Positions 1 to 15,885 are shown, numbered from the stretch's first letter. The stretch: 16,224 nt of DNA from Promethearchaeia archaeon (GCA_029856155.1 JAHQWL010000089.1:1-16224); one strand, 5' to 3'. The notes: generated by a model from the letters alone, not told the origin. Numbers and translations: made by a program.

Positions 1-675
1 ACTGTAAATAGTAACACTTTTGGAGGGATTGCTTTAGGCTTTAGTGATTATAATAATATTTTTGGAAATAACGCATTTAACAATAGTCAACATGGAATAG
101 CTATAACTTCAGGTGAATATAACTCCATTTCAGAAAACACAGTAAATAATAACACTTTTAGTGGGATTTGTTTAGAAGGAAGTTCTTATAATACAATTTC
201 TATAAATAATGTATTTAACAATAAGTTTGGGATACTTATTTCCGATTTGTTAATGATGCCATGCTACTATAATACTATTTTGGCGAATAACGTAAGGAAC
301 AATAGGAAGTATGGGATAGGGTTTGATTCTTGGGCTACTAGTAATGATGTGTATCGTAATAGTTTTAATAATTCTCTCAATGCATATGATAATGGTTCGA
401 ATAATTGGGATAATGGATTTGTAGGAAATTATTGGAGTGATTATACTGGGGTAGACGAAGATGGAGATGGAATTGGTGATACTCCATATAGTATCAATGG
501 TATGGCGCGGAGTAAAGATAATTATCCATTGGTTCCGAATTCGAATTCGGATCATCCCAATTCAGTTCCTGAAAACCCTTTTGAAAGACTTATCCTAATT
601 ACGATTATTAGTGGAGGAGCTGTGATAGGTGTAGCAACTGTCCTATTAATTATAAGAAAAAGGAAAAGAATGTGA
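1..675 (+). CDS. 5'-partial right-handed parallel beta-helix (NosD/CASH-like) cell-surface protein with C-terminal membrane anchor
   Basis: Frame 1 is open from base 1 (TVNSNTFGGIALGFSDYNNIFGNNAFNNSQHGI...), upstream of the track's 247 start. It has Asn-rich beta-helix repeats, the typical GNYWSDYxGxDxDGDGIGDTPY motif, a Pro/Asn linker, a hydrophobic helix and an RKRKRM tail. Confidence 0.9.
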   Translation, partial: TVNSNTFGGIALGFSDYNNIFGNNAFNNSQHGIAITSGEYNSISENTVNNNTFSGICLEGSSYNTISINNVFNNKFGILISDLLMMPCYYNTILANNVRNNRKYGIGFDSWATSNDVYRNSFNNSLNAYDNGSNNWDNGFVGNYWSDYTGVDEDGDGIGDTPYSINGMARSKDNYPLVPNSNSDHPNSVPENPFERLILITIISGGAVIGVATVLLIIRKRKRM

Positions 676-1487: not shown

Positions 1488-1586
1488 CTATCGACCGCAA
1501 TCCTTACAAATCGCTCTCGAATCCGTAAAATCGAGCTTTATCTCTTTACCACATTTCATACAATTTATTCTTATTCTTTTTTTCAT
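1488..1586 (-). CDS. 32-aa zinc-ribbon microprotein MKKRIRINCMKCGKEIKLDFTDSRAICKDCGR
   Basis: Hand-translated. GAGGGA 5 nt before the ATG; CxxC-x14-CxxC; paralog of 1604-1744. Confidence 0.85.
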   Translation of the reverse strand: MKKRIRINCMKCGKEIKLDFTDSRAICKDCGR

Positions 1587-1603
1587 AACAATCCCTCTTT
1601 TAA

Positions 1604-1744
1604 TTAAAAATCAAAATTTTTTGTAGTTCTTGTGTTATGCTCTATTTGACTTTTTCGACACTTCCTACAAAGTGCCCTCGAGTTCGTAAGGTCTAGTTTT
1701 ATTTCTTTACCGCATTTTCTACAGTTTATTATTATTTTGGCCAT
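1604..1744 (-). CDS. 46-aa zinc-ribbon microprotein MAKIIINCRKCGKEIKLDLTNSRALCRKCRKSQIEHNTRTTKNFDF
   Basis: Hand-translated. AAGTGA RBS-like motif; CxxC-x14-CxxC; 18/24 identical to 1488-1586 over the core. Confidence 0.85.
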   Translation of the reverse strand: MAKIIINCRKCGKEIKLDLTNSRALCRKCRKSQIEHNTRTTKNFDF

Positions 1745-1784
1745 ATTTTTCACTTAATTTTTTAAATAAATAGGAAAAATAATT

Positions 1785-1883
1785 TTAATAGGAAATATAT
1801 CGCGAATGACAACTTCCTACATCATTCGAAATAATTATTAGTCTCGTCTTTTTCTTCATTCGTTTAACTCGCATTTTCACCAT
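1785..1883 (-). CDS. Basic micropeptide (MVK)MRVKRMKKKTRLIIISNDVGSCHSRYISY, 29-32 aa
   Basis: GGAGG/GGTGA precede ATGs at 1883 and 1874; the ORF fills the gap between co-oriented small ORFs. Confidence 0.55.
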   Translation of the reverse strand: MVKMRVKRMKKKTRLIIISNDVGSCHSRYISY

Positions 1884-1903
1884 CCTCCAATATCAAACTT
1901 TTA

Positions 1904-2140
1904 TTATCGATTATATGTCAGTCCCCTATAAACGATAGAGTCGACTTTATTTTTCACGTTATTGATATTAATTCTCCCCTGGTGTTGTTTAGCGTGTTTT
2001 CTAAATTTGAATTTAACTCTAATTTGCTCTGGTTCTTCCTTAAGATTCTCTGCTTTTTCCTCAACTAAAGGAATAATTATATAGAGACCTTGATTTTCAT
2101 TCTCTAATTTTTCTAATACCTGAACCATTTTTTTTATCAC
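1904..2140 (-). CDS. Small hypothetical protein (likely start ATG 2128, MVQVLEK...), acidic N-half and basic C-half; first gene of the microprotein operon
   Basis: ORF track; GTGA motif upstream of ATG 2128; co-oriented with three downstream small ORFs. Confidence 0.7.
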   Translation of the reverse strand: MIKKMVQVLEKLENENQGLYIIIPLVEEKAENLKEEPEQIRVKFKFRKHAKQHQGRININNVKNKVDSIVYRGLTYNR

Positions 2141-2173
2141 TTTTTTTTATTTTTACTTATAATTTTATTTATC

Positions 2174-2240
2174 TCGCACTCCAATATATAGATTCGCACT
2201 TCGTACTTCATGCGAAGTTCATACTTTATTCCGAAGTGAA
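2174..2240. promoter_or_regulatory. Candidate operator array in the divergent promoter
   Basis: Heptads TTCGCAC-TTCGTAC-TTCATGC; pseudo-palindrome TTCGTA-CTTCA-TGCGAA (2200-2216); CACTTCG/CGAAGTG inverted pair (2197-2203 and 2232-2238); a similar element occurs at 8190-8226. Confidence 0.55.
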
Positions 2241-2306
2241 AAGCTTAAAAAGTATTAGAAGTATATTTATGTAAGAAAATAAGATCTTATCGGACTGTAT
2301 TTTATT

Positions 2307-5267
2307 ATGAGTAGATCAGAGGGAATTTTATATCCTCCAGGGGAGATATTAAACCCCATTATAGGAAAAACTGATTTTGAATATGTAATATTATGGATGC
2401 TCAGCAATAATGATATTTGCGAGTGGTCAGATTTTACTGCGGAAATTAGCGAATCGACATTATCAGGTAATTTAAAAAAATTAATGAATAAGAATTATAT
2501 TAAAAAGCCTGAAAAGGGAAAATATCAGATCACCTCGCAAGGGAGAGATAGATTTAGTGAATTAGTATACGATAAAAAATCGGGGCAGAGGAGATTAAAA
2601 TATCCACCGAAAGCAATACTTAAAATTAGAAATTATGATCATTGGATTTTATGGATGCTTTACAACAATTATTCATGTAAATGGTCAGATTTTAAACAAG
2701 CACCGCTATTAATTAATCAATCCTCCTTATCTAATAATCTTAATTCATTGATGGATGATGGATTTGTTGCAAGAGAGAATAAAGAATATATAATAACACC
2801 ATCGGGAAAAACCGAGTATCTTAGAGTATTGAAATCCTATGATTTAGACCGTCAATCTATTTTAGAACAAGAAAGCAAGAGAATTGAAGAAATTACAGAA
2901 AAAACGAGTAGATTCTTTAAGAAGTATAAAATAGAAGATGATGAGTTAAAATTTCGGTATCTTGATAATATTCTGAAATTATCTTATTCTAAAGTTGAAT
3001 CGATGCTAAAAGAAGAAGATTTCAATAAAATTTTGTTGTTCCTTTCGATTAATCATCCTAATCAATATCCTGAGTATATTTCGCCTGTAGATTTCTCAGT
3101 GAAATATAAGATTGATAGAACTACTTTAGAATATTACATAAGGGAAATGATTGATAATGAGTTTTTTGGTATAAAATTTTTTAAAATGGAGATTGAAAAA
3201 GGAGGAACTTATTATTTTCAGAAGAATGAGACTTTAGAAAAAATACTTAATGCAATTGTAGAAAAACATATTACAAAATTTACATACTTAAATAAATTTC
3301 ATGAAACTACGATAACAGATGTGGGATTGCTATTAGATATAATATTAAACGATATTTGTAATAATCTATTCAATGAACATCTAAAACCCTCATTAAAATC
3401 ATTTTTACCTGAGTATATTAAATATTTAGCATATAAAATTGAAACAGAGAAGAAATTAGTTGATAGTGAAGCCAAATTAGCAGGATTTATATGGCAAAAT
3501 GTTAATGAAGAATTCCAAACCTTTGATCCTTCAAAAATGGCAATTGCTAGAGAAGAGGATGAGTTATATTATACAATGGATAGCAGCACTTTCAATGTAT
3601 TAGATATTGTGGTTTTGTCTAAATTTTTTTATTTAAACACAAGTGTAGTTCAGGAGACCTATAATTTGAATAAAATAGATATTTATAATAAAATAATAAA
3701 AAATTTATATAGAAATAAAGTTTCTAAAGCAAGGGAACTATCTCAAAATATTACCACTAAGATAAAAACCATAAATCAATTAATAATAAAGGATATTATA
3801 GCTACAGCAGAGAATAACTTAGATGATTCAGTTAAAATTACTTATGAAATTATTGATAAATATCCAAATGAATTTATAGGATATTTATTACAATCAATCA
3901 CTTACTTATTGATTGATAATTATGAAAAGTCTTTAAAAGTCATTGAGGACGCATTAAAAATAACACCTAATGTTCTTCTAATCTGCCAAAAAGCTCAGAT
4001 TTTAATGAGAACATCTCAAGGAGCTAAAGCATTAGATTATATTAATGATGCACTATCTCAGTATCCAGATAATTCAACATTATTAAGAACAAAATACTTA
4101 ATTTATATTACATATTGGATGGCACTAGTAAAGGATTATAATGAGCCTCTTGATGTAATAAATCAATTAACCAATCTGAATCAAAAGGATCAAGAGATTT
4201 TACTCTTAAAAAGTCTTTATTATTGTCTAATCAATAAATATAAAGAAGCAAAGCGTTTAATAATAAATGAAATTGATTTTAATAATTTTAAAAAAAATCC
4301 CAGAATTGAAACCATTGCTTACTTTATCTTGGTTTATTCTTATTTAGCACGCGGTAAATTTGATAAAGCTTTAGAAACTGCAAATCTAGTTTTAACAATA
4401 TATCCCAAACATCCTACTTCATTTTTTACAAAAGCCTTAGTGATTGGATATAATTTGATTTATAGATTTACATTTAAGGAGCCAAATATTGATGCTTTTA
4501 CTGAATTGATAACATCTACTCTCTCTTTTGAAAAAATTAATTATAATAAAACAATTTATCTTCTATTCCAATCACAAGTTTTAAATGGGCTTAGAAAATA
4601 CGATGAAAGCATTAATTCTATTGATACTGCTATTGAAATAGCCCCAACATTGAATTTTCTACATGCTAGGAAGGCATACTTATTAATAATATCTAAGAAA
4701 GAATCTCAAGCATTAAGTTTAATTAATGAACTGTTAGAAAGTCGTCAACCATTGAAGTATAGCCTATTGAAACAAAAATCTTATGTCCAAATCATTCTAA
4801 AACAATATGACGAAGCTTTGAAGACTGTTAATGAAGCAATTGAATTATATCCCCACGATAACGATTTTATCAATAATAAAGCCATGATCTTAGGTTATTT
4901 GGGAAGAAGAGAGAAAGCTATTGAAACTGCTGAACATCTAATAAGCCTTAATCCAAAATATGGAAATTCTTATGATACATATGGTGAAGTATTGATGGTT
5001 CTTGAAGAATATGAAAAAGCTATTGAAAAATTTAAAGAAGCTTTAACCCTTGAACCCACTGGATGGTTTGCCTATGAAACTTGTTTAAAAATGGGACAAT
5101 GTTTTAAGGAACTTGGAAATATTGAAAAAGCTCTTGAATATTATGAGAAAGGAGAAAAATTGACAGAAAAGATGCATCCTAGTTACAGGGATAATTATCT
5201 AGCCAAAACAGAGAAATTAATTTCTGAAGCTAAAATTTTACTTAGAAAATCGAAAAATAGTGAATAA
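2307..5267 (+). CDS. Large protein with two tandem N-terminal winged-HTH repeats and a C-terminal TPR array
   Basis: Internal repeat YPP..IL...(DFEYV/NYDHW)ILWML.NN..C.WSDF....I..S.LS.NL..LM......Y.IT..G occurs twice; TPR consensus helices in the C-half (e.g. YDTYGEVLMVLEEYEKAIEKFKEALTLEP). Confidence 0.88.
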   Translation: MSRSEGILYPPGEILNPIIGKTDFEYVILWMLSNNDICEWSDFTAEISESTLSGNLKKLMNKNYIKKPEKGKYQITSQGRDRFSELVYDKKSGQRRLKYPPKAILKIRNYDHWILWMLYNNYSCKWSDFKQAPLLINQSSLSNNLNSLMDDGFVARENKEYIITPSGKTEYLRVLKSYDLDRQSILEQESKRIEEITEKTSRFFKKYKIEDDELKFRYLDNILKLSYSKVESMLKEEDFNKILLFLSINHPNQYPEYISPVDFSVKYKIDRTTLEYYIREMIDNEFFGIKFFKMEIEKGGTYYFQKNETLEKILNAIVEKHITKFTYLNKFHETTITDVGLLLDIILNDICNNLFNEHLKPSLKSFLPEYIKYLAYKIETEKKLVDSEAKLAGFIWQNVNEEFQTFDPSKMAIAREEDELYYTMDSSTFNVLDIVVLSKFFYLNTSVVQETYNLNKIDIYNKIIKNLYRNKVSKARELSQNITTKIKTINQLIIKDIIATAENNLDDSVKITYEIIDKYPNEFIGYLLQSITYLLIDNYEKSLKVIEDALKITPNVLLICQKAQILMRTSQGAKALDYINDALSQYPDNSTLLRTKYLIYITYWMALVKDYNEPLDVINQLTNLNQKDQEILLLKSLYYCLINKYKEAKRLIINEIDFNNFKKNPRIETIAYFILVYSYLARGKFDKALETANLVLTIYPKHPTSFFTKALVIGYNLIYRFTFKEPNIDAFTELITSTLSFEKINYNKTIYLLFQSQVLNGLRKYDESINSIDTAIEIAPTLNFLHARKAYLLIISKKESQALSLINELLESRQPLKYSLLKQKSYVQIILKQYDEALKTVNEAIELYPHDNDFINNKAMILGYLGRREKAIETAEHLISLNPKYGNSYDTYGEVLMVLEEYEKAIEKFKEALTLEPTGWFAYETCLKMGQCFKELGNIEKALEYYEKGEKLTEKMHPSYRDNYLAKTEKLISEAKILLRKSKNSE

Positions 5268-5281
5268 TCCAAATTAAAAAT

Positions 5282-5953
5282 GTGATCTTAATGGATTACC
5301 GATTTGTAAAAGCATTCGAGTTTAATTTTAATTTTGGAACACTTTTATCAGTTGATTTCAGCTCCTGTTCTGAAGATTCAGACTTAATTAACCTTACTGA
5401 AGAAATATTTAATGAAATTAGAGATTGTATTAATATTCGAGGTATTCCCAGTCTAATTTGGTTTAAGGGAATAACCGACTCTGTAAATCCTTCAAATTTT
5501 ATGTTGATTACAAAAATGATTAGAGCGGTATATCCAAGACAAAAAATTGGAATTTATTTGAATTGTGGAATTTTTCAATATGAGGATATTCGAAATGTTT
5601 TTTATGGGTGTGATTTGGTTGCTATTAATCTCAATACCGTTGAGCACTTTCAATTTTCAAAAATTAATACATGTCCTGAATTTATAAATTCTAAAGCCGT
5701 ATTAAATGGAATAATAGAATTTAGTAAAACTTTTAAGGGAAAATTAGGCATTTATACCATGTTTTTAAAAGGTGTTAATGATAACGTTAAGAATGTTAAA
5801 AGGCTAAAAGAATTCTTATTGAATGTCATGCCAGATCATTACTCTGTCAGTAATTACACATTAAATGGCTTTGAACCTGTTTCGACAGACTTTAAAAAAG
5901 GAGTTAAAGAAATCTTGGAGGATCTTCCTTTCAAGGTTATTTATATGTTCTAA
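5282..5953 (+). CDS. Degenerate radical-SAM-fold protein (COG0731-like) lacking CxxxCxxC; alternative start ATG 5291
   Basis: Recognisable GTLLSVDF, EEIFNEI, KIGIYLNC, DLVAINLN, FSKIN, ILNGIIEFSK-like, FKGKL.I.TMFLKGVNDN segments; no three-Cys cluster motif. Confidence 0.72.
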   Translation: MILMDYRFVKAFEFNFNFGTLLSVDFSSCSEDSDLINLTEEIFNEIRDCINIRGIPSLIWFKGITDSVNPSNFMLITKMIRAVYPRQKIGIYLNCGIFQYEDIRNVFYGCDLVAINLNTVEHFQFSKINTCPEFINSKAVLNGIIEFSKTFKGKLGIYTMFLKGVNDNVKNVKRLKEFLLNVMPDHYSVSNYTLNGFEPVSTDFKKGVKEILEDLPFKVIYMF

Positions 5954-5989
5954 TTTATATCTGGTTTTAGCCCAAAGTTATTAAATTGT

Positions 5990-6454
5990 TCAACATGGTT
6001 CAAATTTAAAACCGCAACATTCACATAGATTTTCAATATTTTCAATGTATTTTAACATTGAATTATACCATTTGTCCAATAATTTTTTTAACTGGATTTT
6101 AATTGTATCCATATTTTTAGCATTATACACATAAAGATATCCTTGTTTTTTAGCATCTTTTATTCCCTTTACTTTAATATAATCTTTCATAGACATTGAA
6201 CTACGTTCAACAAGTTTTAATTCAGATAAATCTTGAACAGCTCTTTGAATTGAGCTTCTATCCATCTTTAATGCTTGTGCTACTTCAGATGTTCTCACAT
6301 CTTTATTTTTTAATAAATATTCAAGGACTTTAGATTCTGTCTTGTTCAAGCCTAAAATACAACTAAATAATCGATCACTAGAAAAAATTTCTTTTTTATC
6401 TAATAACCTGTCTATTATCTCAAATTCTTTTAATTGTTTTCCAATTACTTCCAT
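5990..6454 (-). CDS. HTH transcriptional regulator (TrmB/COG3355-like) with Cys-rich C-terminus
   Basis: CILGLNKTESKVL..LL, TSEVAQALKMDRSSIQRAVQDL..L.LVER, GYLYVY, L...LDKWY pattern; ends LCECCGFKFEPC. Confidence 0.85.
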   Translation of the reverse strand: MEVIGKQLKEFEIIDRLLDKKEIFSSDRLFSCILGLNKTESKVLEYLLKNKDVRTSEVAQALKMDRSSIQRAVQDLSELKLVERSSMSMKDYIKVKGIKDAKKQGYLYVYNAKNMDTIKIQLKKLLDKWYNSMLKYIENIENLCECCGFKFEPC

Positions 6455-6515
6455 TAATAATCAGCTCAAAAATAATATAAAAAATTTAAAGAAAAAAGGA
6501 ATTAATTTAATAAAT

Positions 6516-6923
6516 TCATTTTTTTAATTTTTCTAATACTTTCTTCATGCCTTCATAGTTCATTGCTCCAACAACTTGATGTACAACCTCATCATTTTTG
6601 ATAAATGAAGTTGTTGGAATTCCTGTTATTCCATACTTCATCGCTATAGCGTTATTTTCATCAACATTAACCTTCACAAAAACAAAATCGTTTCGAAATT
6701 CTCCATGAAGTTTCTTAAAAATTGGAGCAAAAAAGATGCAAGGTCCACACCAAACAGCCCAGAAATCTATAATAATTATTTTATCAGGATAATCCTTCAA
6801 TAATTTGTTAAATTCTTCAGAAGATTTTATTTGTATTACGTGTTCTGGCATCATTTGATGTTTTAATAAAGTTTCAGCTTTTTTCATTCTTAACCTTTCT
6901 AGGTCCTTATCTGCTTCTTGCAT
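6516..6923 (-). CDS. trxA: Thioredoxin with N-terminal extension
   Basis: IIDFWAVWCGPC active site, KVNVDEN, GITGIPT (cis-Pro), VVGA. Confidence 0.95.
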   Translation of the reverse strand: MQEADKDLERLRMKKAETLLKHQMMPEHVIQIKSSEEFNKLLKDYPDKIIIIDFWAVWCGPCIFFAPIFKKLHGEFRNDFVFVKVNVDENNAIAMKYGITGIPTTSFIKNDEVVHQVVGAMNYEGMKKVLEKLKK

Positions 6924-6954
6924 TTATGTTTCACATTAAATTATACTGTTTTAA

Positions 6955-6977
6955 GTTGTGAGATTTTTTTTCACAAC
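6955..6977. promoter_or_regulatory. Inverted repeat upstream of trxA, candidate operator
   Basis: GTTGTGA-N9-TCACAAC, about 30 nt upstream of the trxA ATG. Confidence 0.55.
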
Positions 6978-7066
6978 CTTCTAATACTAAGGTATTTAAT
7001 AGAATATTTAAAGTTGATTATAGTGCGAAAAATTTCACTACTTTATAAACAAATAAAGGAAAAATA

Positions 7067-8005
7067 TTATTCTTCTGTTAGAGATTCTATTTCTTTTTGC
7101 TGATTTAATCTTGAAGTTTTTCTCCGAGATGATACAATAATTTGGAAGTCTAAATCTTTTTTATATAAATCAGCTGCTCTTGCTATCTCCTTAGCAATAT
7201 CTTCCATTATAGAGTCTTCTTTAATACTAGCTCCGTTAAACATTGGTATTTCTGCATATTTTTCAATCAAACCTACGGTTATTTCCTGTGGTAAAACATC
7301 AGATCTATCTTTAAGTGCCATAGTGATCCTCTCTTCCAAATTTACATAAATTTCTCCCTTACTAAATTGACAATCTACGCATTTAGCACTTCGATTTTTA
7401 AAAATATTTAATATTATTAACCCTGTAATAAATTTGAAGTTTCTTTTTAAAATATCTTTAATATCTCTATTATCAGGATCATTGATGTATTGTTGAATAT
7501 GTTTCCCCGCATTAGTATATAATTTACAAAAAAATAAACCTCGATGAAAATAAGCGGGAACTATGCAGAATATTCTCGTAAACCAAAAAGGTGTGATTCC
7601 AATCGGTGGTTTTTCACGAAAGAAATAATAAGCTACTCTCCCCTCTCGTTCTGTATGTAGAGTAGACTCTTTTTTTAGCATATTCAAATATGTTGAAGTT
7701 GTAGAGCGAGCAATCTCTTTAAAATATCTTTTATATTCTTTCTCTACTTCACCTGTAGTAAGTTTGTTCTTTCCTTCTAAGTAGTATTGCAAAACTATTC
7801 CTAAAATTCGGCTTTCGTGAAGACGGCCCGTTTTTATCTGTTGTTCTTCTGCTTCATCTTCTCTAATTTGATATAAATATGCAATTTCCGGGGCATAATC
7901 TTGAATAACTTTATCTATAAGTTTAAGTTCGGGATCAACTTCTTCTATTTCTGCTGATTTAGTGCTTTCTATTATTAATTCATCAATCTTAGATTTTTCA
8001 GACAA
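7067..8005 (-). CDS. Hypothetical winged-HTH protein with internal CxxC
   Basis: LTTGEVEKEY....IARSTTSTYLNMLKKE..L..EREGRVAYYFF resembles an ArsR/BlaI-type wHTH; CVDC in the C-terminal domain; TTG start. Confidence 0.75.
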   Translation of the reverse strand: MSEKSKIDELIIESTKSAEIEEVDPELKLIDKVIQDYAPEIAYLYQIREDEAEEQQIKTGRLHESRILGIVLQYYLEGKNKLTTGEVEKEYKRYFKEIARSTTSTYLNMLKKESTLHTEREGRVAYYFFREKPPIGITPFWFTRIFCIVPAYFHRGLFFCKLYTNAGKHIQQYINDPDNRDIKDILKRNFKFITGLIILNIFKNRSAKCVDCQFSKGEIYVNLEERITMALKDRSDVLPQEITVGLIEKYAEIPMFNGASIKEDSIMEDIAKEIARAADLYKKDLDFQIIVSSRRKTSRLNQQKEIESLTEE

Positions 8006-8189
8006 TTTAAAAAACTCTTTTAGTTAATTATAATATCTATTTGTTTTACCTTGTTTTTAGGGGGTATTATTCTATGTATTCACTTCGCCTATCATAAAAT
8101 AAATTCCGTTCTACATCAGTAACTTGTAAAAAATTGATTTTCTATTAATTAAATTTAATTAGATTTTCAATTCATAAATAGAGTATTAA

Positions 8190-8226
8190 TTCGCACTTGA
8201 TGTGAACTATGAACTTTAAATGAAGT
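8190..8226. promoter_or_regulatory. Candidate operator related to 2193-2240
   Basis: TTCGCA-CTTGA-TGTGAA matches 2200-2216 at 14/17; the reverse complement of 8203-8226 matches 2205-2228 at 19/24. Confidence 0.5.
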
Positions 8227-8306
8227 CTGAAAATTAATGGTCTATAAAGAAGAGATTAAGCCTTGTAAGATAATAAGAAAATCCTGTTTAAACTAGATAA
8301 AACTTT

Positions 8307-8327
8307 TAAGTATGTAATACATACTTA
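8307..8327. promoter_or_regulatory. Palindromic operator of TA module 1
   Basis: TAAGTATGTA-A-TACATACTTA with perfect 10-bp arms, 5 nt before the antitoxin ATG. Confidence 0.7.
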
Positions 8328-8332
8328 CATAT

Positions 8333-8563
8333 ATGAGAACTAATATTGTAATTGATGATGATTTAAAGGAGAAGTGGTGGGAGATTAAAAGAGAAGCAGA
8401 TCATCTCAATATGAAAATTGGTGATTACATTATTTTTTGTCATGATCTCAGAAAAAAAATGGTTAATAAGGATAAGATTCTTAAGATTTTAGAAAATCCG
8501 TTATCTGAGGGTTTAAAAGACATAGATGTAATAAAGGCAAGTAAGAGTATGTGGAAATCATGA
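8333..8563 (+). CDS. vapB: Antitoxin (VapB-like, RHH-type N-terminus)
   Basis: MRTNIVIDDDL N-terminus; stop overlaps the PIN gene start (ATGA at 8560-8563). Confidence 0.8.
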   Translation: MRTNIVIDDDLKEKWWEIKREADHLNMKIGDYIIFCHDLRKKMVNKDKILKILENPLSEGLKDIDVIKASKSMWKS

Positions 8564-8967
8564 GAGGAATCGATTCGAACATTCTTGTGTATGCATTAAA
8601 TAAAGATCTTCCTGGACATCTACCTTGTAAGGAACTTTTAATTAACATTGTTAATGGGAAAGAGCTCATAGGCATTCCTTCAATAGTATTTATGGAATGT
8701 TTTCATGCGTTAGTTAAGGCATTTAAATACAAAGAGGTTGAGGTTAAGAAGCGGTTAGTTGCAATTATTGATTCGATAAATATCAATGTACTAGACGTTT
8801 CTACATCTTCAATATTATTTGCATTTGAAATAGCTGAAAAATATAGAAATGGAGGGAGGGATTCCCTAATTGCAGCAAGTTTATTGGAAAATAAGATTCA
8901 AGAGATTTATTCTCATGATTCAGATTTTGATAAAATAAAGCTTATAAAACGGATTGATCCAATTTAA
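8560..8967 (+). CDS. vapC: PIN-domain toxin (VapC)
   Basis: IDSNILVYA, E in the helix (FMECF), RDSLIAA, IYSHDSDFD acidic PIN residues; the ATG at 8560 is preferred over the track's GTG at 8551. Confidence 0.92.
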   Translation: MRGIDSNILVYALNKDLPGHLPCKELLINIVNGKELIGIPSIVFMECFHALVKAFKYKEVEVKKRLVAIIDSININVLDVSTSSILFAFEIAEKYRNGGRDSLIAASLLENKIQEIYSHDSDFDKIKLIKRIDPI

Positions 8968-9003
8968 CTTAAATTACTAGGTAATTTCGACTTATATTAT
9001 CTC

Positions 9004-9040
9004 TCTCTAATATTCCCTCCTCTGTGGTGTCCTCTCCTAA
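9004..9040 (+). repeat. Direct repeat copy 1 flanking TA module 2
   Basis: tctctaatattccctcctctgtggtgtcctctcctaa; 32/37 match to 9991-10026. Confidence 0.8.
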
Positions 9041-9059
9041 AAAAGGGGTACTAATAATA

Positions 9060-9476
9060 TTAGTTTCCGCTTAAATTTGAGGGAATTAACCCTTTAAAGT
9101 GTTTATCAAAGGTAGCTAAAAAATTGCAGTTTAAACGTTTGCAATGAATTAAAATGGAGCTATCCGTAAAAGATAATCTTTTTTCCTTATATTTTTGAAA
9201 GACCTCCCAAGAATTCTTAAAATCGTCATCCGTTTGACTAATAATCTTTATCTTTCTATTCTTCAAAAGGTAATTTCCCAAATTTATCGCAAAATCAGGA
9301 CGTTTTATTCTTACCAATGCTAATGTCACCAATTCATTAAACACTAATGTAGAGGTATATATCTCCCCAAATTCATTTTTTAGAAACCTCCTCATCCAAG
9401 ATTGTGCAATTTCGAAATTTTTATCATCCTTGTTCTTAATTGCCAATAAAAATCCTGTATCTAAAAAAACAGCCAT
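9060..9476 (-). CDS. vapC: PIN-domain toxin (VapC)
   Basis: VFLDTGFLLA, VFNELVT, LSFTDSS, ATFDKHF motifs. Confidence 0.93.
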   Translation of the reverse strand: MAVFLDTGFLLAIKNKDDKNFEIAQSWMRRFLKNEFGEIYTSTLVFNELVTLALVRIKRPDFAINLGNYLLKNRKIKIISQTDDDFKNSWEVFQKYKEKRLSFTDSSILIHCKRLNCNFLATFDKHFKGLIPSNLSGN

Positions 9477-9478
9477 TT

Positions 9479-9763
9479 TTATTCTTCCCCATTTGACTGA
9501 TATAAAATTTCATCGACTCTTTCAGATAAATCTTTAATACCTAACTCAAAAATATCGTCCAATCCTTTCCATGCGTGATCATCAATTATTGATTCTAAAA
9601 CTTCATTTTCTTCAAGACCTTCAGCTATTAGTGCATCCTCAATCATCTTTGCTACAAGATCCTTCTTGCTTATTTTTTTTCCTCTTAAAGTTAAATGAGA
9701 AACCAATCTATCCAACAATTTCAAATGTTTTTTATCAATCCGTATGGTACTTATGAAAATCAC
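9479..9763 (-). CDS. Putative antitoxin of TA module 2
   Basis: STIRID RHH-like N-terminus, acidic C-half ending DLSERVDEILY; 2 nt upstream of the PIN gene. Confidence 0.78.
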   Translation of the reverse strand: MIFISTIRIDKKHLKLLDRLVSHLTLRGKKISKKDLVAKMIEDALIAEGLEENEVLESIIDDHAWKGLDDIFELGIKDLSERVDEILYQSNGEE

Positions 9764-9777
9764 TTTTTTTGTATCTT

Positions 9778-9793
9778 TGTATACTAGTATACA
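9778..9793. promoter_or_regulatory. Palindromic operator of TA module 2
   Basis: Perfect 16-bp palindrome TGTATACTAGTATACA just upstream of the antitoxin start. Confidence 0.7.
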
Positions 9794-9990
9794 TAAATTT
9801 AAAATATATTAATTTTTTGATTTATTAACATAAAAGAACCTTTCCAAATGTGTTTATCTTAAAATTGCTAATTTTGAGAGATCTTCATATTTTATTCATC
9901 TCTGACGAAATTTATCCAATAAACAAAGATAGATCATTTCATTTTTAAAATTTTCTTATTAAAAAGAGTTTTCTTTTAATTTATTCTGTT

Positions 9991-10026
9991 TCTCTATTAT
10001 TCCCTCCCCCGTGGTGCCTCCCCTAA
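9991..10026 (+). repeat. Direct repeat copy 2 flanking TA module 2
   Basis: tctctattattccctcccccgtggtgcctcccctaa; matches 9004-9040. Confidence 0.8.
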
Positions 10027-10180
10027 TTACTTTGGGAAAAAGAAAGAATTAAAATAAAAAGAAAAAAGAATTCTATAAGTAATTTAAGTATAAAGAAATT
10101 TCAATTATAAATGAATTATGTTTACTGACAAAACTAGGAGTGTAATTAACAACAAAAAAAAAGATTGATTGATTTAACCA

Positions 10181-10474
10181 TTATTTTTTAATAATATCTT
10201 TCATTTTTTTATCCAGATTACTTGAAGCTTCAGCATGGCTCTTTCCATGTACTAGTGTGTCTGTTCCATATTCTGAACTTGCTAATACACTTGCTCCAGC
10301 TGCACTAATTGTTGCTACTCCCGCTTGCACTCCTGCTCCAATAGCCTTTCTCTTCTCTACCACAATATCTAAGAATGTTATTGTTGGAATGAGTTGGGTT
10401 CGTATAAGTGCTTTGGAATAAGGAATATCTCGCTCAGATCTACTCGCATAATATCTCCATCCATGAGCATCAGT
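10181..10474 (-). pseudogene. Probable 3' remnant of an unknown gene (DAHGWRYYASRSERDIPYSKALIRTQL...DIIKK)
   Basis: The frame of track ORF 10181..10363 stays open up to 10474 with no ATG and is cut at the junction with the duplicated fragment at 10469. Confidence 0.5.
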
Positions 10475-10588
10475 TCAACGGGATTTTGGGTAAACCGAGT
10501 AGTTGTTATATAGCCGAGTTGTACGTAATCAAACTGACGAATGGAAAATAATCCCCATATCCAAATTTGAACGCTATTATAGATAATA
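10469..10588 (-). repeat. Duplicated internal fragment of the 11537..12208 gene
   Basis: 10469-10563 matches 11997-12091 at 93/95; weaker match continues (10564-10588 vs 12092-12116, 18/25); no start codon in frame upstream. Confidence 0.92.
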
Positions 10589-10776
10589 TTAGGTCTAATA
10601 AAACGAAAATGAGGGATTTTCTATTTTTATATTTTTCAAAAATATTGATTATACCCTTTATGAATAAAGATTAATTTAAAATTAAATAATATTTTTCTTA
10701 TTTTTTTCATAATAATGTTTTAAAGTTCGTCATTAATTTTTATTATATTCAATAATCTCTTAAGAGAAGAAGTAGA

Positions 10777-11082
10777 ATGCCAAATATACAAATTACAGTG
10801 ATAAAACGATTTAGTCCAGAAGATGTTTTTGGACATGAATACAAAAACTCTACTGGAAAAGTAGTAGAGAAATGCCATTTTGAAGATGGTCAAGAATGGA
10901 TAAGTGAAGATGGAGAGATGCCTGAAGGTTTTTGTGATTGGGCATGGACTGATTTAGCTCGGAGTATAGATTTTCTGCGGTCTAGCGATTTTAAGAAATG
11001 GGCAGAAGATGGAATAACGTATGTTGCATGTTCTGATGGAACAAGGCCTGTGTGTTTCAAACTTAAAAGAATTGAAGATTAA
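10777..11082 (+). CDS. TIGR04076-family-like protein
   Basis: ITVIK...C.F.DGQEW....MPEGFCDWAW.DL ... ACSDGTRPV.FKLKRI pattern. Confidence 0.85.
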   Translation: MPNIQITVIKRFSPEDVFGHEYKNSTGKVVEKCHFEDGQEWISEDGEMPEGFCDWAWTDLARSIDFLRSSDFKKWAEDGITYVACSDGTRPVCFKLKRIED

Positions 11083-11320
11083 TATTTAGCATGGATTACA
11101 AAGAGGAAATATATTTATTAATAAATATATTTTAACAAGAACAAGAATATACCTTGTTGCTTACATGCGACTTTGGAATTTTGTGCTTTTTACCTTTCTA
11201 AACCAGAAGCGAAATTAATGTTTTCTTGAGTGGTATCAAAATAATCTTCACACACTTTAGCAAATTATATACAACTTCCTAGAAGTTCTGGTAGAAAGAG
11301 ATTATAAGTAAAAAAAAAAT

Positions 11321-11428
11321 TTATTCTATAGGTTCAACGATTTGTATTATTTCTACAAAAAAGAAAGATTATAAATAAGTAGAAAAAGAAAACTATTCTA
11401 TTGGTTCAATGACTTGAATTACTTCTGC
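11321..11428 (-). repeat. Two tandem displaced copies of the MFS gene 3' end (72-bp period)
   Basis: 11321-11356 encodes VEIIQIVEPIE* and 11393-11428 encodes AEVIQVIEPIE*, versus intact TEVVQVIEPIE*; spacer 11357-11392 resembles the MFS trailer 14537-14571. Confidence 0.85.
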
Positions 11429-11469
11429 GTGATGTACTCGTTAACCTTGATTTCTTTTTCAACAGGCAA
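11428..11469 (-). pseudogene. 5' stub of a 'KEFKVNEYIT'-type gene fused to an MFS 3'-end copy
   Basis: TTG at 11469 gives MPVEKEIKVNEYIT, which resembles the start of 12324..12557, then runs directly into the repeat. Confidence 0.5.
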
Positions 11470-11536
11470 TCTTATCTAATTTTTCTTTCCATAGGAATTC
11501 AACAATTAGATTAATGACCTATATGTCTTATTTATC

Positions 11537-12208
11537 TTAACTATCTGGAAAACTTTTAAGATTAAATCCACAATTAATGCAATATTTTTGATTGGTATCT
11601 ACAACCTTTTCTCCACAAGTAGGGCAAAATTTAAAGGAATGTGGAACCTGACTGTAATCATAAGGAGTAGGAGCTTCTGGTTTCGTAAGGGTGATGACTT
11701 CCTTTGGTAGTTTTGGGCTCATCTTTGCGGCAGCATATCCAATTAATGACAATACAGCACCAAGAAAAGGTCCTATTACACCAAATCCAGGATTGATATA
11801 CTCCCAAAAACTTATTCCTGTTTCTATTTGTGTATAAATTTCAAAGCCTATAATCCAGATAAGTGCTCCAATTATCAGTAATATTGAAGGTTTAATCCAT
11901 TTCTTACCTGTAATATCTGTTTTTCTGCTTGAATTTGCACTGGAAATAAGTCCTAATGCTCCAGAGAATACTAATAACGTAGCACTGATAGAAATTATCA
12001 GTTCAACGGGATTTTGGGTAAACCGAGTAGTTGTTATATAGCCAAGTTGTACGTAATCAAACTGACGAATGGAAAATAATCCCCACATCCATACCTGCAT
12101 ACTATTAAAGATAATAGAAACCGAAGCTGCAGGTGTTAATAATCCTATTAATGCAACTATCCCTCCGATAAGAGGAAGTATCCATATGTGTTCTGTATTA
12201 TCGCCCAT
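11537..12208 (-). CDS. Membrane protein (about 4 TM) with C-terminal zinc ribbon
   Basis: Hydrophobic segments; C-terminal KFCPTCG-x8-YCINCG. Confidence 0.85.
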   Translation of the reverse strand: MGDNTEHIWILPLIGGIVALIGLLTPAASVSIIFNSMQVWMWGLFSIRQFDYVQLGYITTTRFTQNPVELIISISATLLVFSGALGLISSANSSRKTDITGKKWIKPSILLIIGALIWIIGFEIYTQIETGISFWEYINPGFGVIGPFLGAVLSLIGYAAAKMSPKLPKEVITLTKPEAPTPYDYSQVPHSFKFCPTCGEKVVDTNQKYCINCGFNLKSFPDS

Positions 12209-12323
12209 TTTTTATCATCTCTCATATATTAAATTACACATAAAAGATAATTTTCGTCTTATTTTTGTGTAAGATACATTCAGTTATAAATGAATATTAT
12301 TTCTATATAGAACGACATAATTT

Positions 12324-12557
12324 CTATATATTAGACAGAGGAATTTTCTTGGCCTTTTCTTTAGTTTCATCCTTAGCTTTCTTATATTTATCTATATATT
12401 CATCGATTGACTCAAAATCATAATAGTTTAAATCTTCTATAAGTATCTCGATTAGAACAGCCTTACATCTTAAGATTTTCTTATCATTTACATAGATATT
12501 TGTTATCCCGTTCTCGAGTTTTAGACTTAGAAATTCATTGATCACAAACTCCTTCAT
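12324..12557 (-). pseudogene. Likely truncated N-terminal domain of Lokiarchaeal LRR-associated proteins
   Basis: MKEFVINEFLSLKLENGITNIYVN...CK..L...ESIDE matches that N-terminal domain as I recall it; it stops at KIPLSNI, before the usual EEFWGHCSNLQ-type continuation. Confidence 0.6.
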
Positions 12558-12657
12558 TATTTAAAAAATATCATTTCGGCTATTTAATTAGGAACTGTAT
12601 TTTGAGTTTTAGGTTTATGAATTTACATACATAAAAATTTCAAAAAGTTAATTTAAA

Positions 12658-12831
12658 TTAATATATATATAAAATAATAGAGATTTTTCCTCTTAATCTT
12701 AAATCTGTAAGAACTGTACTAGGACACCAATTTTTAAGCCCCATCCCAGATCCTCCCAAAGGTAACTTCCCATTTTCCTTCAAGATTAAGAGTAGATGTT
12801 TTTCTCCCGTTAACATAATGTAATTCTCCAT
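12658..12831 (-). pseudogene. 57-codon 5' fragment resembling the GPP34/GOLPH3 family N-terminus
   Basis: Hand-translated MENYIMLTGEKHLLLILKENGKLPLGGSGMGLKNWCPSTVLTDLRLRGKISIILYIY*; ExLLLL...GK...VLxDLxLRGKI pattern; ends in an AT microsatellite. Confidence 0.5.
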
Positions 12832-12990
12832 TTATGTTAGATAATAACAAGAAAAAGTTGTAAAAAGCCTTTCTTTTTTACTAAGTTTTGGAATGTAATT
12901 CGGAGATATTTTTTACAAAAAAGTCTGTATATAATAGTTGATACCTAAAGATCTTAAAGTTTAACAATTAAAAAATAAAAGAAAAAAAAA

Positions 12991-13143
12991 TTATTCTACT
13001 GGTTCAATAACTTGAATTATTTCTGCAGTTTGTGTTATTTCTTCTGCTTCTTCAACTTCCTCTGCTTTTTCAACTTCTTCTGATTTCGACATTATTTCTC
13101 TTTCAATGATTTAAAGTTATTTTATTTTCGTGAAAAACTATAT
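12991..13143 (-). pseudogene. Displaced ~150-bp 3' end of the MFS gene
   Basis: Encodes I*FFTKIK*L*IIEREIMSKSEEVEKAEEVEEAEEITQTAEIIQVIEPVE* versus intact IWFFTKIRQLEVIEREIMAKSEEDEKVEEITQSTEVVQVIEPIE*; three nonsense changes. Confidence 0.92.
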
Positions 13144-13282
13144 AATAATTGGAAATAATATTATGATTTAAGGAAGGAGAACTTTACTCACATATAATAA
13201 GTATTTTTTGCTATAATGGTATTAAGCATTTATAAATGAGTAAAAATTAATAAGCAAGGTTTGAATTTTTTTCGATCAGATT

Positions 13283-14500
13283 ATGGCTGAAATAATAATC
13301 TGGGACATCCCATCAATATTCTTGAGCGGTATAGCCTTCAGCATATTATGTATAGGTGGTTTCCTATATTTAAATAAGGGTGTTAAAAGTGAAAGCTTCA
13401 ACGAAAAGATTATTATTTTTGGATATGCTGCGATATTTCTTTCATTTGCTTGCTTAGTTTTTTTTTTTGCTTTAGCTTCTTCATATATGGCTGGTATTTA
13501 TATGAATTTTGCATTTTTTACGGATTCAAGTCAAATTAATGCACTTTCAGATATTTTTTATAGAGTAACTTATAGTTCACTTTTTTTTGGCTTTCTTTTT
13601 TTTATTTTGTTGTTTGAGATTAATTTTAAACGGACAAAATATATTTTATCAATCATCGGATTTTTAATTAACATTACAACATTACTAATAGCTCCTATCA
13701 ACTCTGAAATAAATTTACTTCCATATGCATACAATTTATTGATGGCGGTTTTAGTTATAATAATATTTACAAACTGGTCAAAATTTGAATATAGAATAAT
13801 ATCCTCTTATATCATGATGGGATTAGTCTGTATTGGATGGGCAGGTGCTTTTTTGGGCATACCATTTCTTTATGGGCGGAATCTTTTGCCAATGTGGATA
13901 TCTTCTTTATTAATTTGTATTGGGGGAATAATAATGATAATTACTCTATTTATTACCCCTACAAATCTTTCTCGTTCATGGTTTTATGGACAATTTTTTT
14001 GTCAATTTTTTATTATCAGTTTACAAATCATATTTATGTTAGTTTTTATATTTGGAGGACTTCCTATTATTGCAACAATTTTAATCATAGTTTCCACCTT
14101 TCTTTATATATACATGTTATTTTCTAACATAAAATCTATAAAAACTTATCAAGCAGGAACGATTTCCTCACAAGAAAAAGAATTGCATCCAGACATTCTA
14201 AGTATGTTTGTTCGACCTCAAAAGCTTACCGAAGAAGAAGTTTCTGTTGCTAAAGAAAAGAAAATTTGTTTAGTCTACAAAAACAAAGTCACGAGGTTCA
14301 ATATCTTTATTTGTCCAGAATGTGATACATTATATTGCGAAAACTGTGCTAAAGCGCTTAGCGATTTAGAAAATACATGTTGGGTTTGTGGAGTTTCATT
14401 AGATCCTTCGAAACCTTCGAAAACTGTTCATGAAATGGCTGACAATCTTGAATTTATAGTTTCTAATGATACGCAAAAGTTTAAAAAATTACCAAAATAA
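13283..14500 (+). CDS. Multi-pass membrane protein with C-terminal Cys-rich (RING/zinc-finger-like) domain
   Basis: About 8-9 hydrophobic segments, then RPQKLTEEEVSVAKEKKICLVY..ICPECDTLYCENC..ENTCWVC. Confidence 0.85.
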   Translation: MAEIIIWDIPSIFLSGIAFSILCIGGFLYLNKGVKSESFNEKIIIFGYAAIFLSFACLVFFFALASSYMAGIYMNFAFFTDSSQINALSDIFYRVTYSSLFFGFLFFILLFEINFKRTKYILSIIGFLINITTLLIAPINSEINLLPYAYNLLMAVLVIIIFTNWSKFEYRIISSYIMMGLVCIGWAGAFLGIPFLYGRNLLPMWISSLLICIGGIIMIITLFITPTNLSRSWFYGQFFCQFFIISLQIIFMLVFIFGGLPIIATILIIVSTFLYIYMLFSNIKSIKTYQAGTISSQEKELHPDILSMFVRPQKLTEEEVSVAKEKKICLVYKNKVTRFNIFICPECDTLYCENCAKALSDLENTCWVCGVSLDPSKPSKTVHEMADNLEFIVSNDTQKFKKLPK

Positions 14501-14571
14501 GTCATACGAGATTCTTGAGAGAACTTAAAATTATGCAAAAAGAAAGAGTATAAATAAAAAAGAAAAAAAAT

Positions 14572-15885
14572 TTATTCGATTGGTTCAATAACTTGAACTA
14601 CTTCTGTAGATTGTGTTATTTCTTCTACTTTTTCATCCTCTTCTGATTTAGCCATTATTTCTCTTTCGATAACTTCAAGCTGTCTTATTTTCGTGAAAAA
14701 CCAAATAAAAAACGGTTGGATTATTCCAAGAATCGCAGCGATTAGAAATAGAAATTTTATTCCTAATAATATTGCCAATGGTCCTGCAATAAGTGCGCCT
14801 ATTGGAGCTATCGCCATAGAAATCATGTGATCAATAGACATTATTCTACCCATTTTGTCTTTTGAAACAACGGTCTGTAATATTGCTAAGTATGTGGAAA
14901 CTGTAATCGGAAAAAGTACCCATGCTGGAAAGAGAGATATTATCATAATAACAAAATTCCCCCTAGGAGCAAGAATTGCGGGTATTTGACATACAAAGAA
15001 TAATGCGGCTCCAATAATATTAATCTTAATTTTATGCTTCCAGGTTTTCTTAAGTGAAGTAATGATAGATCCAAGGATGTTTCCAACTTGACTTGAAGTC
15101 ATTATCAATGCAAGATCTAATGCTGAACCACCATGTGTATCATATATGAAATTAGGGAGCAGAACCGCCCAAGGTCGGTGAATGAAGTTCCATATCATGG
15201 CAAAAGCAATCATTGCAAATAATCCTGGAATCATTTTAATTGTCAATAATCCTGTTTTAAAATCCTTAAACATTGACTTTTTTACTGCTTCTTCAGTAGT
15301 CTGGGGTATTTTTGGAATTTTTATTATTAATAATGGAACCATAGCAATCAAGAATGTTACAATATCGAGAAGAAAGATCATTTCTGTCTTTGGAATGAAC
15401 GCCATAAGAGTGGCTGCTATCATTGGACCTACACTATATATGAGCCCAGAACTCAAAAAATTCATCCCATTAACTCTACTTAGGTTATCTCGTGGAACCA
15501 TAACAGGGATTAAGGATTGTACTGCAGGGAGTTGAAATGCAAATGATGCTGCTCTAAATGTATTTATTATGAGAATAAATACGATACTCTGCATATCCAA
15601 AAGGAAAAATATGAAAAGCAAAAACGTTAACCCTGCTTGCATCGAATCCGATATAGCAATAATTGCCTTTTTATTCCATCGATCTGAAATTACTCCAGAA
15701 AATGGTGTAACAAGAACTTGCGGGAGAAACATCAAAAACACTGAAATTGAAAGATAAATAACATTAGAGGCCATGTACCACGTGATAACAAAACCAACTA
15801 TCATTGAACCTAACATAGAGAATTGTTGGCCTAGCAAAAAATAAAGGTAGTGATGAAATGATTTTTTATTAGTTTTTTCTGCCAT
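14572..15885 (-). CDS. MFS transporter, DHA3/Mef-like efflux family
   Basis: GQQFSMLGS, PFSGVISDRWNKK (motif A), PAVQSLIPVMVPRDNLSRVNG, LQTVVSKDKMGR; about 12 TM. Confidence 0.93.
   Translation of the reverse strand: MAEKTNKKSFHHYLYFLLGQQFSMLGSMIVGFVITWYMASNVIYLSISVFLMFLPQVLVTPFSGVISDRWNKKAIIAISDSMQAGLTFLLFIFFLLDMQSIVFILIINTFRAASFAFQLPAVQSLIPVMVPRDNLSRVNGMNFLSSGLIYSVGPMIAATLMAFIPKTEMIFLLDIVTFLIAMVPLLIIKIPKIPQTTEEAVKKSMFKDFKTGLLTIKMIPGLFAMIAFAMIWNFIHRPWAVLLPNFIYDTHGGSALDLALIMTSSQVGNILGSIITSLKKTWKHKIKINIIGAALFFVCQIPAILAPRGNFVIMIISLFPAWVLFPITVSTYLAILQTVVSKDKMGRIMSIDHMISMAIAPIGALIAGPLAILLGIKFLFLIAAILGIIQPFFIWFFTKIRQLEVIEREIMAKSEEDEKVEEITQSTEVVQVIEPIE

Follow-up and report, generated by a model that had tools for sequence, protein, structure and literature searches.

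Regulators that join a DNA-binding domain and a tetratricopeptide repeat (TPR) sensor in one polypeptide are known from the RRNPP group of Firmicutes and phages (Rgg/SHP, PlcR/PapR, PrgX, AimR), whose TPR arrays bind short peptides, and from the STAND/TPR activators (MalT, AfsR/SARP-NOD-TPR), large DNA-binding proteins with a C-terminal TPR sensor. The MarR, PadR and ArsR/SmtB repressors, in turn, are small homodimers that usually bind dyad operators overlapping core promoters. Here we analyzed a locus of a Promethearchaeia archaeon (GCA_029856155.1) in which the gene of a 986-amino-acid (aa) protein with winged helix-turn-helix (wHTH) domains and a long TPR array is directly followed by the gene of a 223-aa protein derived from radical S-adenosylmethionine (SAM) enzymes. 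The locus occupies positions 1488-8240 of the window, by which we mean the entire stretch of DNA analyzed, a whole 16.2-kb contig (C89; JAHQWL010000089.1, 16,224 nucleotides) from a genome (G000) of 4.1 Mb with 28% G+C; genomes, contigs and loci are referred to by G, C and L numbers. To our knowledge, experimental work has so far revealed next to nothing about specific gene regulation in Asgard archaea. The literature searched on wHTH-TPR regulators of Lokiarchaeia and Asgard archaea and on radical SAM pseudo-enzyme partners contained no description of such a module, and the public relatives of the window proteins, found in metagenome-assembled genomes (MAGs) of Promethearchaeota/Lokiarchaeia, are almost all annotated as hypothetical.

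An earlier note, made from this DNA alone, had read the divergent layout of the locus as a candidate undescribed regulatory module and had named the conservation of the gene neighborhood across genomes as a test. Every component on its parts list was located at or near the position it had given. Four micro-ORFs (open reading frames) on the minus strand are followed by an intergenic region, by the genes of the 986-aa and 223-aa proteins on the plus strand and by those of a TrmB-type protein, a thioredoxin and a 312-aa protein, all on the minus strand; a VapB/PIN pair comes after the 312-aa gene. The outcome of the neighborhood test was positive, since the layout is conserved and the regulator and the cluster-less protein adjoin wherever the assembly permits. 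We regard the module as real, conserved and lineage-specific; its anatomy is well supported by sequence comparison, whereas its mechanism is what we infer from it. In the reading that we prefer, and to which we give slightly better than even chances, the wHTH-TPR regulator binds an operator and controls its own operon, the 312-aa gene and the microproteins, with the TPR array and the dead enzyme as the receivers of the signal.

The module resembles one-component HTH-TPR regulators and belongs to neither the RRNPP nor the STAND group. As in the RRNPP systems, the DNA-binding domain and the TPR sensor share one polypeptide, and small ORFs face the regulator gene across a common control region, a layout that suggests autoregulation. 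It differs from them in that the DNA-binding part consists of three MarR/PadR-type winged helices, the XRE-type HTH (or Rap-type phosphatase domain) of RRNPP members being absent and their C-terminal TPR-type domain present (by Pfam). The TPR region much exceeds theirs in length, no export signal is visible in the small ORFs, which are interchangeable with the 312-aa gene, a pseudo-enzyme is an obligatory partner, and the range is archaeal and restricted to one family. No sequence relationship between the module and the RRNPP systems was found. The STAND/TPR activators differ in their DNA-binding fold and in their nucleoside triphosphatase domain: between the DNA-binding and TPR parts of the regulator, no NOD/NB-ARC domain was detected among the 25 listed of 31 Pfam matches and the 25 listed of 26 NCBIfam matches.

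The regulator and its cluster-less partner

The core features are the following.

2307..5267, plus strand: 986-aa regulator, from Pfam, an AlphaFold2 (AF2) model and fold alignment
5282..5953, plus strand: 223-aa cluster-less radical SAM-derived protein, from alignment with intact relatives
2180..2251: putative operator, copy 1, between the gene of the microprotein mp74 and the regulator gene (nhmmer E 9e-18)
8170..8240: putative operator, copy 2, its reverse-facing TATA-like box directed toward the 312-aa gene (nhmmer E 4e-9)
7067..8005, minus strand: 312-aa protein, module-linked copy of a narrow orphan family, from alignment and profile searches

In the N-terminal part of the regulator, HTH_34 was matched at residues 28-86 with 31.7 bits, above the Pfam cut-off of 27, and MarR at residues 114-158 (22.4 bits) and HxlR (19.1 bits) came out under their cut-offs of 24.6 and 20.8. 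Many matches to TPR_1, TPR_2 and TPR_8, at 77-96 bits far over the cut-offs, covered residues ~468-960, an array of about 500 aa. The AF2 model of residues 1-440, calculated from 24 orthologues and paralogues (predicted local distance difference test, pLDDT, 77.5), placed a first wHTH at residues 24-87, a second at 110-175, a long helix at 182-206, a third wHTH at 236-305 and a helical domain extending to about residue 406. The duplicated wHTH units and the long TPR array claimed in the earlier note were thus recovered, but its count was too low, the third winged helix having been missed. Residues 20-90 and 101-180 of the model, with pLDDT values of 80-90, aligned to MarR, PadR and SmtB with Z 9-10 and root-mean-square deviations of 1.5-3 Å over about 70 residues (VIA-align), and the matches of both segments included operator-bound MarR and PadR. 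We therefore attribute to wHTH1 and wHTH2, as modeled, the MarR/PadR/SmtB-type winged-helix fold. Unlike the MarR, PadR and ArsR/SmtB repressors, however, the regulator carries two to three tandem wHTHs in one chain, as SarS-type duplicated proteins do, joined in the same polypeptide to a helical domain and a TPR solenoid; its Pfam scores for such families lie around the cut-offs. A TFIIIC- or RPC62-like reading was discarded: Foldseek with the 440-aa model gave no match at E <= 0.001, and the top rows (RPC62, TFIIIC tauB and SarS, TM ~0.16) reflect mere strings of winged helices.

The ~440 N-terminal residues are highly conserved, with 61 invariant columns among the 24 orthologues and paralogues. 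The CxWSDF motif that had been assigned to each wHTH unit indeed occurs twice, with an invariant Trp; its Cys is kept in the orthologues of ~986-1002 aa within the genus and is not conserved in the paralogues. The genome holds seven copies of the regulator with about 54% identity, each with different neighbors. Of the six further copies (C67, C65, C54 and C102; L002-L007), four are complete at 631-640 aa, a fifth has 839 aa, and a contig end truncates the sixth. Some have a small gene in divergent orientation, for example those of an 83-aa protein (C67) and of a 132-aa membrane protein (C54), and genes of the small GTPase and roadblock/longin-like types occur in the vicinity of several. Stand-alone proteins of 215-232 aa from other Asgard families match residues ~195-352 of the regulator at 22% identity (G075:C42:37080-37520, G110:C78:1057-1494 and G150:C63:2482-2928); they may represent a free-standing ancestor of the region of the third wHTH.

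The 223-aa ORF begins 14 nt past the regulator stop, or 23 nt if the ATG at 5291, the start in public gene calls, is used. It has no Pfam match, and its relation to the minimal radical SAM enzymes (PF04055 core only; MoaA/viperin/PFL-AE-like) became apparent from 243-aa relatives with the motifs CSFNCVYC and GNGEP and a PF04055 match of E 1e-11: the 223-aa protein is 33-35% identical to these over about 220 aa and shares a homologous partial barrel. Such intact relatives in Lokiarchaeia, of 238-243 aa, are L038:9352-10083 and L041:5978-6694, the latter likewise directly behind a wHTH-TPR paralogue. In contrast to these, the 223-aa protein shows a deletion of about 18 aa at the site of their C(S/N)FNC(V/I)(Y/F)C, so that the CxxxCxxC loop is missing in 15 of 15 orthologues, and the GGE motif, the anchor of the methionine moiety of SAM, reads ITDS, IGDS or ISDx where the intact relatives have G(N/S/F/D)GEP. 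The later barrel motifs of beta3-beta6 still align (KIG..LN, CDL..L, GI....(N/G)(I/V)N and PD). The description of a radical SAM fold without cluster motif is borne out by this alignment, which places the protein in the radical SAM superfamily by descent. With the CxxxCxxC loop deleted, GxGEP replaced and no Pfam match, radical chemistry is not expected from its sequence.

Loss of the cofactor sites has not been followed by loss of the gene. The 15 orthologues are 44-92% identical to the 223-aa protein and retain 44 invariant columns, and pairwise ratios of nonsynonymous to synonymous substitution (dN/dS) of 0.07-0.22, at dS up to 1.1, indicate purifying selection. In a maximum-likelihood tree the cluster-less proteins, including a member from a second genus, form one clade (support 94/90) beside the intact 238-243-aa relatives. 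As this single clade spans two genera, the sequences point to one old event in which the [4Fe-4S] loop and the SAM-anchoring GGE motif were lost, before the two genera split. An identity as prokaryotic viperin (pVip) was rejected, both a family-level score and an active radical SAM core being absent: the intact relatives gave weak scores with the pVip models of PADLOC (27-40 bits), the score of viperin_w_prok of NCBIfam was 29.9 (cut-off 180), and PADLOC had no match for the 223-aa protein of the window. When an intact compact radical SAM relative was used as the query, no PDB sequence was matched. Elsewhere in the genome, L010 (G000:C22, 1-2696) encodes a canonical 315-aa radical SAM protein (CNFQCIYC), a distant paralogue of the dead enzyme, in an iron-sulfur context of an Mrp/NBP35-like ATPase, a NifU/IscU-like protein and a DtxR-like repressor.

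To follow the pair through the genus, 41 genomes were searched with two queries, the 223-aa protein and the middle part of the regulator, which is specific to the subfamily. Both genes lay side by side on one contig at the expected spacing in 21 genomes, neither was found in 17, and three were discordant, two at contig ends (G010 and G017) and one, G179, with a partial copy; the pair is adjacent in 21 of 21 testable genomes. In all fetched loci with a complete pair, the barrel gene follows the regulator gene with a gap of 3-26 nt, and a second genus carries the same cluster-less pair (L040). In a sample of 150 genomes from the phylum, the module was present in 20 of the 25 of the window's own family, with 1-7 matches each, and matches elsewhere were marginal. 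On this sequence sampling the module is an accessory, lineage-specific trait of one family of Lokiarchaeia (Promethearchaeota). The genome of L040 also holds L041 (G086:C93, 3413-8309), where an 846-aa wHTH-TPR gene is followed by an enzymatic operon of an intact 238-aa radical SAM protein (CNFNCIYC), a 271-aa ATC-hydrolase-like protein (PF14196) and a second intact radical SAM protein of 241 aa. This paralogous arrangement suggests that the ancestral state was a regulator ahead of a small enzymatic operon. At L032 (G001:C61, 2184-11519) the module occurs twice in tandem; one copy is complete, with 312-aa gene, regulator and barrel, whereas of the second barrel gene no more than a 42-aa remnant interrupted by stops is left, next to an intact regulator and an intact divergent 312-aa gene.

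The G086 operon with its intact enzymes, the weak pVip scores of the intact relatives, the patchy occurrence of the module in the genus, its proximity to toxin-antitoxin genes and to the insertion-prone 3' end of a major facilitator superfamily (MFS) gene, and the decayed duplicate at L032 could also be taken as traces of a former biosynthetic or conflict operon, whose radical SAM-like gene is decaying and hitch-hikes on the regulator transcript without serving a function itself. We consider this improbable. A decaying gene is difficult to reconcile with the low dN/dS over well-diverged pairs, with invariant columns retained down to 44% identity, with the adjacency of the pair in every testable genome and with the age and singularity of the cluster loss. 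PADLOC gave no match for the core window proteins, and PHROGs and PADLOC applied to the window proteins returned nothing beyond weak wHTH matches.

The element between the divergent genes and the 312-aa family

The intergenic region between mp74 and the regulator measures 166 nt (2141-2306), or 178 nt with the ATG start of mp74 (2128). It contains a 72-bp element that precedes every regulator orthologue. The element starts with a reverse-facing TATA-like box, ATATATAG, and TTCG-N-ACTTC, continues with a 14-bp dyad, ACTTCA-NN-TGAAGT, and an 18-bp dyad, TTCAkAC-TTTA-GTmTGAA (the ACTTC/GAAGT dyads P1 and P2), and ends with a purine-rich stretch resembling a TFB-recognition element (BRE) and a forward TATA-like box, CTTAAAAA, about 55-65 nt ahead of the ATG. 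The dyads thus span about 40 bp between two outward-pointing boxes. Mean pairwise identity is 0.77 in the element as compared to 0.38-0.43 in its flanks, and mean column identity in the element alignment (A4) is 82%. In the dyads, 86% of the cells pair, versus 21-40% after the partners were shifted against each other; this symmetry is conserved in the sequence, which in itself is no proof of a dimer site. Because the dyads are located between two outward-facing core promoters they are probably not transcribed, and an operator fits better than an RNA element. A scan for sigma-70 promoters and terminators showed no enrichment, the sigma-70 model being unsuited to archaea.

A profile search of the 4.1-Mb genome returned exactly two significant sites, 2182-2250 and 8171-8235, both in promoters of module genes. 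The motif that had been proposed to link the regulator and the 312-aa gene therefore holds as a 72-bp element. The exact 9-mer TTCGCACTT carries no weight by itself, as its 5 matches with at most one mismatch do not exceed chance (2.5 expected). Upstream of the module-linked 312-aa genes the element appears as its reverse complement, and it occurs in the same relative orientation ahead of the 312-aa orthologues of L026, L027, L028, L029 and L037. In L032-L036, a single copy lies between the regulator gene and a divergent 312-aa gene, and a diverged version precedes the second-genus orthologue. These arrangements are consistent with an origin from one bidirectional promoter, of which a second copy arose as the 312-aa gene relocated. 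Promoters of the 839-aa and 640-aa paralogue subfamilies are built on the same plan, in which A(G/C)TTC repeats of their own extend over 40-50 bp between a reverse and a forward TATA-like box, with a small gene in divergent orientation; five of the six further paralogues in the genome have such repeats between outward TATA-like boxes, and the C65 copy has no clear repeats.

The 312-aa proteins align with 73% mean identity (A2) and share an invariant C147 and an invariant C209xxC212. A wHTH at about residues 61-128 gave a weak signal (Penicillinase_R, E 0.002, below cut-off), and the AF2 model is poor (pLDDT 62); of the CxxC-bearing wHTH protein named in the earlier note, the CxxC is accordingly firm and the wHTH tentative. 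The family amounts to 40 representative clusters among 1.84 billion proteins, and profile searches of this set and of the PDB, as well as the ESM Atlas, brought up no informative relative. The 312-aa gene is linked to the module in most loci. Most genomes hold a core copy, with an extra one where the module is present; in the window's genome the core paralogue, on contig C28, lacks the element. Two genomes, G013 and G189, carry the module and yielded no 312-aa homologue, and the G013 locus (L031) retains a well-conserved operator.

These observations bear on which of the two proteins would bind the element. That the 312-aa protein is an operator-binding repressor of itself, of the wHTH-TPR operon and of the microproteins, with the wHTH-TPR protein as its target or scaffold, is suggested by the element ahead of every module-linked 312-aa gene in a fixed orientation, by the weak BlaI/Penicillinase_R-like signal and by the five loci where the 312-aa and regulator genes are divergent partners. 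The module and its operator persist, however, where no 312-aa homologue was found, the C28 core paralogue does without the element, and analogous operators accompany the paralogous wHTH-TPR genes, of which those examined in the genome have no 312-aa neighbor; the wHTH of the 312-aa protein is, moreover, modeled at low confidence. On the same grounds of gene distribution the wHTH-TPR protein is the likelier binder, and we rate a repressor role of the 312-aa protein as unlikely.

Divergent microproteins and the proposed mechanism

On the other side of the element, four micro-ORFs point away from the regulator.

1904..2128, minus strand: mp74, 74 aa and lysine-rich, the first gene transcribed away from the operator
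1785..1883, minus strand: 32-aa ORF ending ..RLIIISND..HSRYISY, kept in L025, L026, L027 and L029
1604..1744, minus strand: zr2, a 46-aa zinc-ribbon microprotein, from orthologue comparison
1488..1586, minus strand: zr1, a 32-aa zinc-ribbon microprotein with CxxC..CxxC, the last gene of the operon, conserved in related loci

As the earlier note had assumed, they are genuine in the sense that they are conserved as ORFs in related loci. The conserved start of mp74 is MVQVLEK and not the upstream GTG, and this N-terminus and the internal motifs IIIP and INKVKN are kept in seven loci; Pfam, NCBIfam and PHROGs contained no family match for it. The DNAs of zr1 and zr2 are duplicates with 77% identity. 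Orthologues of zr2 (47-88% identity) adjoin the module in nine loci, and its match to RpoP is weak (29.9 bits, cut-off 89). None of the four occurs elsewhere in the genome.

Conserved micro-ORFs back-to-back with the regulator in eight loci, found at this locus alone within the genome, recall the RRNPP systems with their peptide-binding TPR arrays, and the TPR array could accordingly bind one of the divergently encoded microproteins in an archaeal peptide-signaling switch. We regard such a switch as unlikely. The DNA-binding domains are of the MarR/PadR type and not XRE-type HTHs; by eye, none of the four micro-ORFs has a hydrophobic export leader, the products being lysine-rich or, in two cases, zinc ribbons. 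They also lie on the output side of the operator. Furthermore, the set is variable: mp74 is deleted in L026, no homologue of it was found in L033-L036, and in five loci (L032-L036) the 312-aa gene takes the divergent position of the microproteins, followed by a zinc-ribbon ORF in L035. In view of this variability and replacement, the microproteins look like outputs of the reverse promoter rather than signals.

In the preferred reading, with the wHTH-TPR protein as the operator binder, the tandem wHTHs would bind the dyads between the two core promoters and so autoregulate the regulator-barrel operon. In the other direction, the regulator would control one of two targets, the 312-aa gene or the operon of the four microproteins (mp74 to zr1), and a relocated 312-aa gene, as in the window, would stay in the regulon through the copy of the element that it has kept. 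Signal input would be the task of the TPR array together with the dead enzyme, whose barrel may still bind a relative of the ancestral substrate and relay this via the TPRs. DNA binding, a contact between regulator and barrel and the existence of a ligand are here what we infer from conservation and gene order. A more specific version, in which the cluster-less barrel is an allosteric ligand-binding subunit that docks to the TPR solenoid and controls whether the triple wHTH binds DNA, is put forward tentatively, as a possibility to which we give clearly less than even chances.

Several points weigh against the proposal. All compared genomes are related MAGs, and the counts given above are not independent events. 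The TATA and BRE assignments were made by eye, and covariation within the dyads was not beyond that of shuffles (81 of 500). The 312-aa protein may itself bind DNA, and the pseudo-enzyme could act independently of the regulator and merely share its transcript.

The module offers a defined regulator, a 72-bp putative operator and a small regulon that can be tested in vitro with archaeal TATA-binding protein (TBP), transcription factor B (TFB) and RNA polymerase. It is also a clear-cut natural example of a radical SAM enzyme stripped of its cofactor sites and still under selection next to a regulator, and thereby a model for the recruitment of pseudo-enzymes into signaling. With 1-7 paralogues per genome and variant promoters, natural variation could reveal the DNA-recognition code of tandem wHTHs. 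If the barrel is a co-sensor, an enzyme of a small-molecule pathway would have become the sensor of the regulator that once controlled that enzyme, and the locus would provide the first radical SAM pseudo-enzyme known as a transcriptional co-sensor, in a lineage-specific family of Asgard regulators.

Thioredoxin-TrmB neighbors and flanking genes

Two genes lie between the barrel and the 312-aa gene.

5990..6454, minus strand: TrmB-type wHTH protein with a Cys tail (PF01978, 42.4 bits, cut-off 25.6)
6516..6923, minus strand: thioredoxin, from Pfam and NCBIfam

The pairing of trxA with the gene of a Cys-tailed HTH protein, as described in the earlier note, is present, and the C-terminal tail, CECCGxKxEPC, is invariant. 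The pair was found in 8 of 14 loci with the cluster-less partner gene and also in L045; in seven loci it lies downstream of the 312-aa gene and co-directional with it, and in L025 it occurs without a linked 312-aa gene. It is missing from L029-L034, and the TrmB gene is present in two of five module-less genomes. Upstream of trx (6954-7042, minus strand) we found a dyad, AGTGAAATTTTTCGCACT (AGTG..CACT), at 7021-7042, a TATA-like box, CTTTAAATA, at 7005-7013 and a perfect palindrome, GTTGTGA-N7-TCACAAC, at about 6954-6978, all of which are conserved in L026, L027, L028 and L037. The genome profile search placed no module operator there. With its own promoter, without the module operator, missing from several module loci and with TrmB in module-less genomes, the Trx-TrmB pair is by sequence a separate unit and a neighbor outside the core module, and the palindrome region is probably the operator of the Cys-tailed TrmB regulator.

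The single-wHTH TrmB protein OxsR is a thiol switch in Haloferax (PMC9426492). The 5990-6454 protein, known from sequence, resembles it in its PF01978 wHTH, its conserved Cys and the adjoining thioredoxin as a thiol-relay gene, and differs in that the Cys residues sit in the C-terminal tail and not in an N-terminal helix. By analogy, an OxsR-like thiol-switch role is plausible for the Trx-TrmB pair itself. The earlier note had gone further and suggested thiol or metal control of the locus; such control could be exerted through the thioredoxin, the Cys-tailed TrmB and the conserved cysteines of the wHTH proteins. The Haloferax precedent, the invariant tail, the co-directional arrangement behind the 312-aa gene and the invariant C147 and CxxC of the 312-aa protein would suit this idea, but other observations speak against it: ahead of trx, a separate conserved TATA-like box and a palindrome of another kind stand in place of the module operator, the pair is absent from several loci that carry the module, TrmB occurs in genomes that lack it, and the Cys of CxWSDF is not conserved among the paralogues. 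Locus-wide control of this kind is in our judgment very unlikely.

At its left end, the contig starts inside the gene of a NosD/right-handed beta-helix repeat protein (window 1-675), and many related loci show synteny between the module and the glyoxalase-family gene at 921-1289. To the right, about 6.5 kb with two VapBC/PIN-type pairs and unknown genes (window 8240-14607) separate the operator of the 312-aa gene from the MFS gene. In L026 (6470-6560), L027 and L028, this operator directly abuts the 3' end of the MFS gene (..EVIQVIEPIE*). The spacer in the window and the direct contact in the other three loci fit an insertion-prone site at the MFS 3' end.

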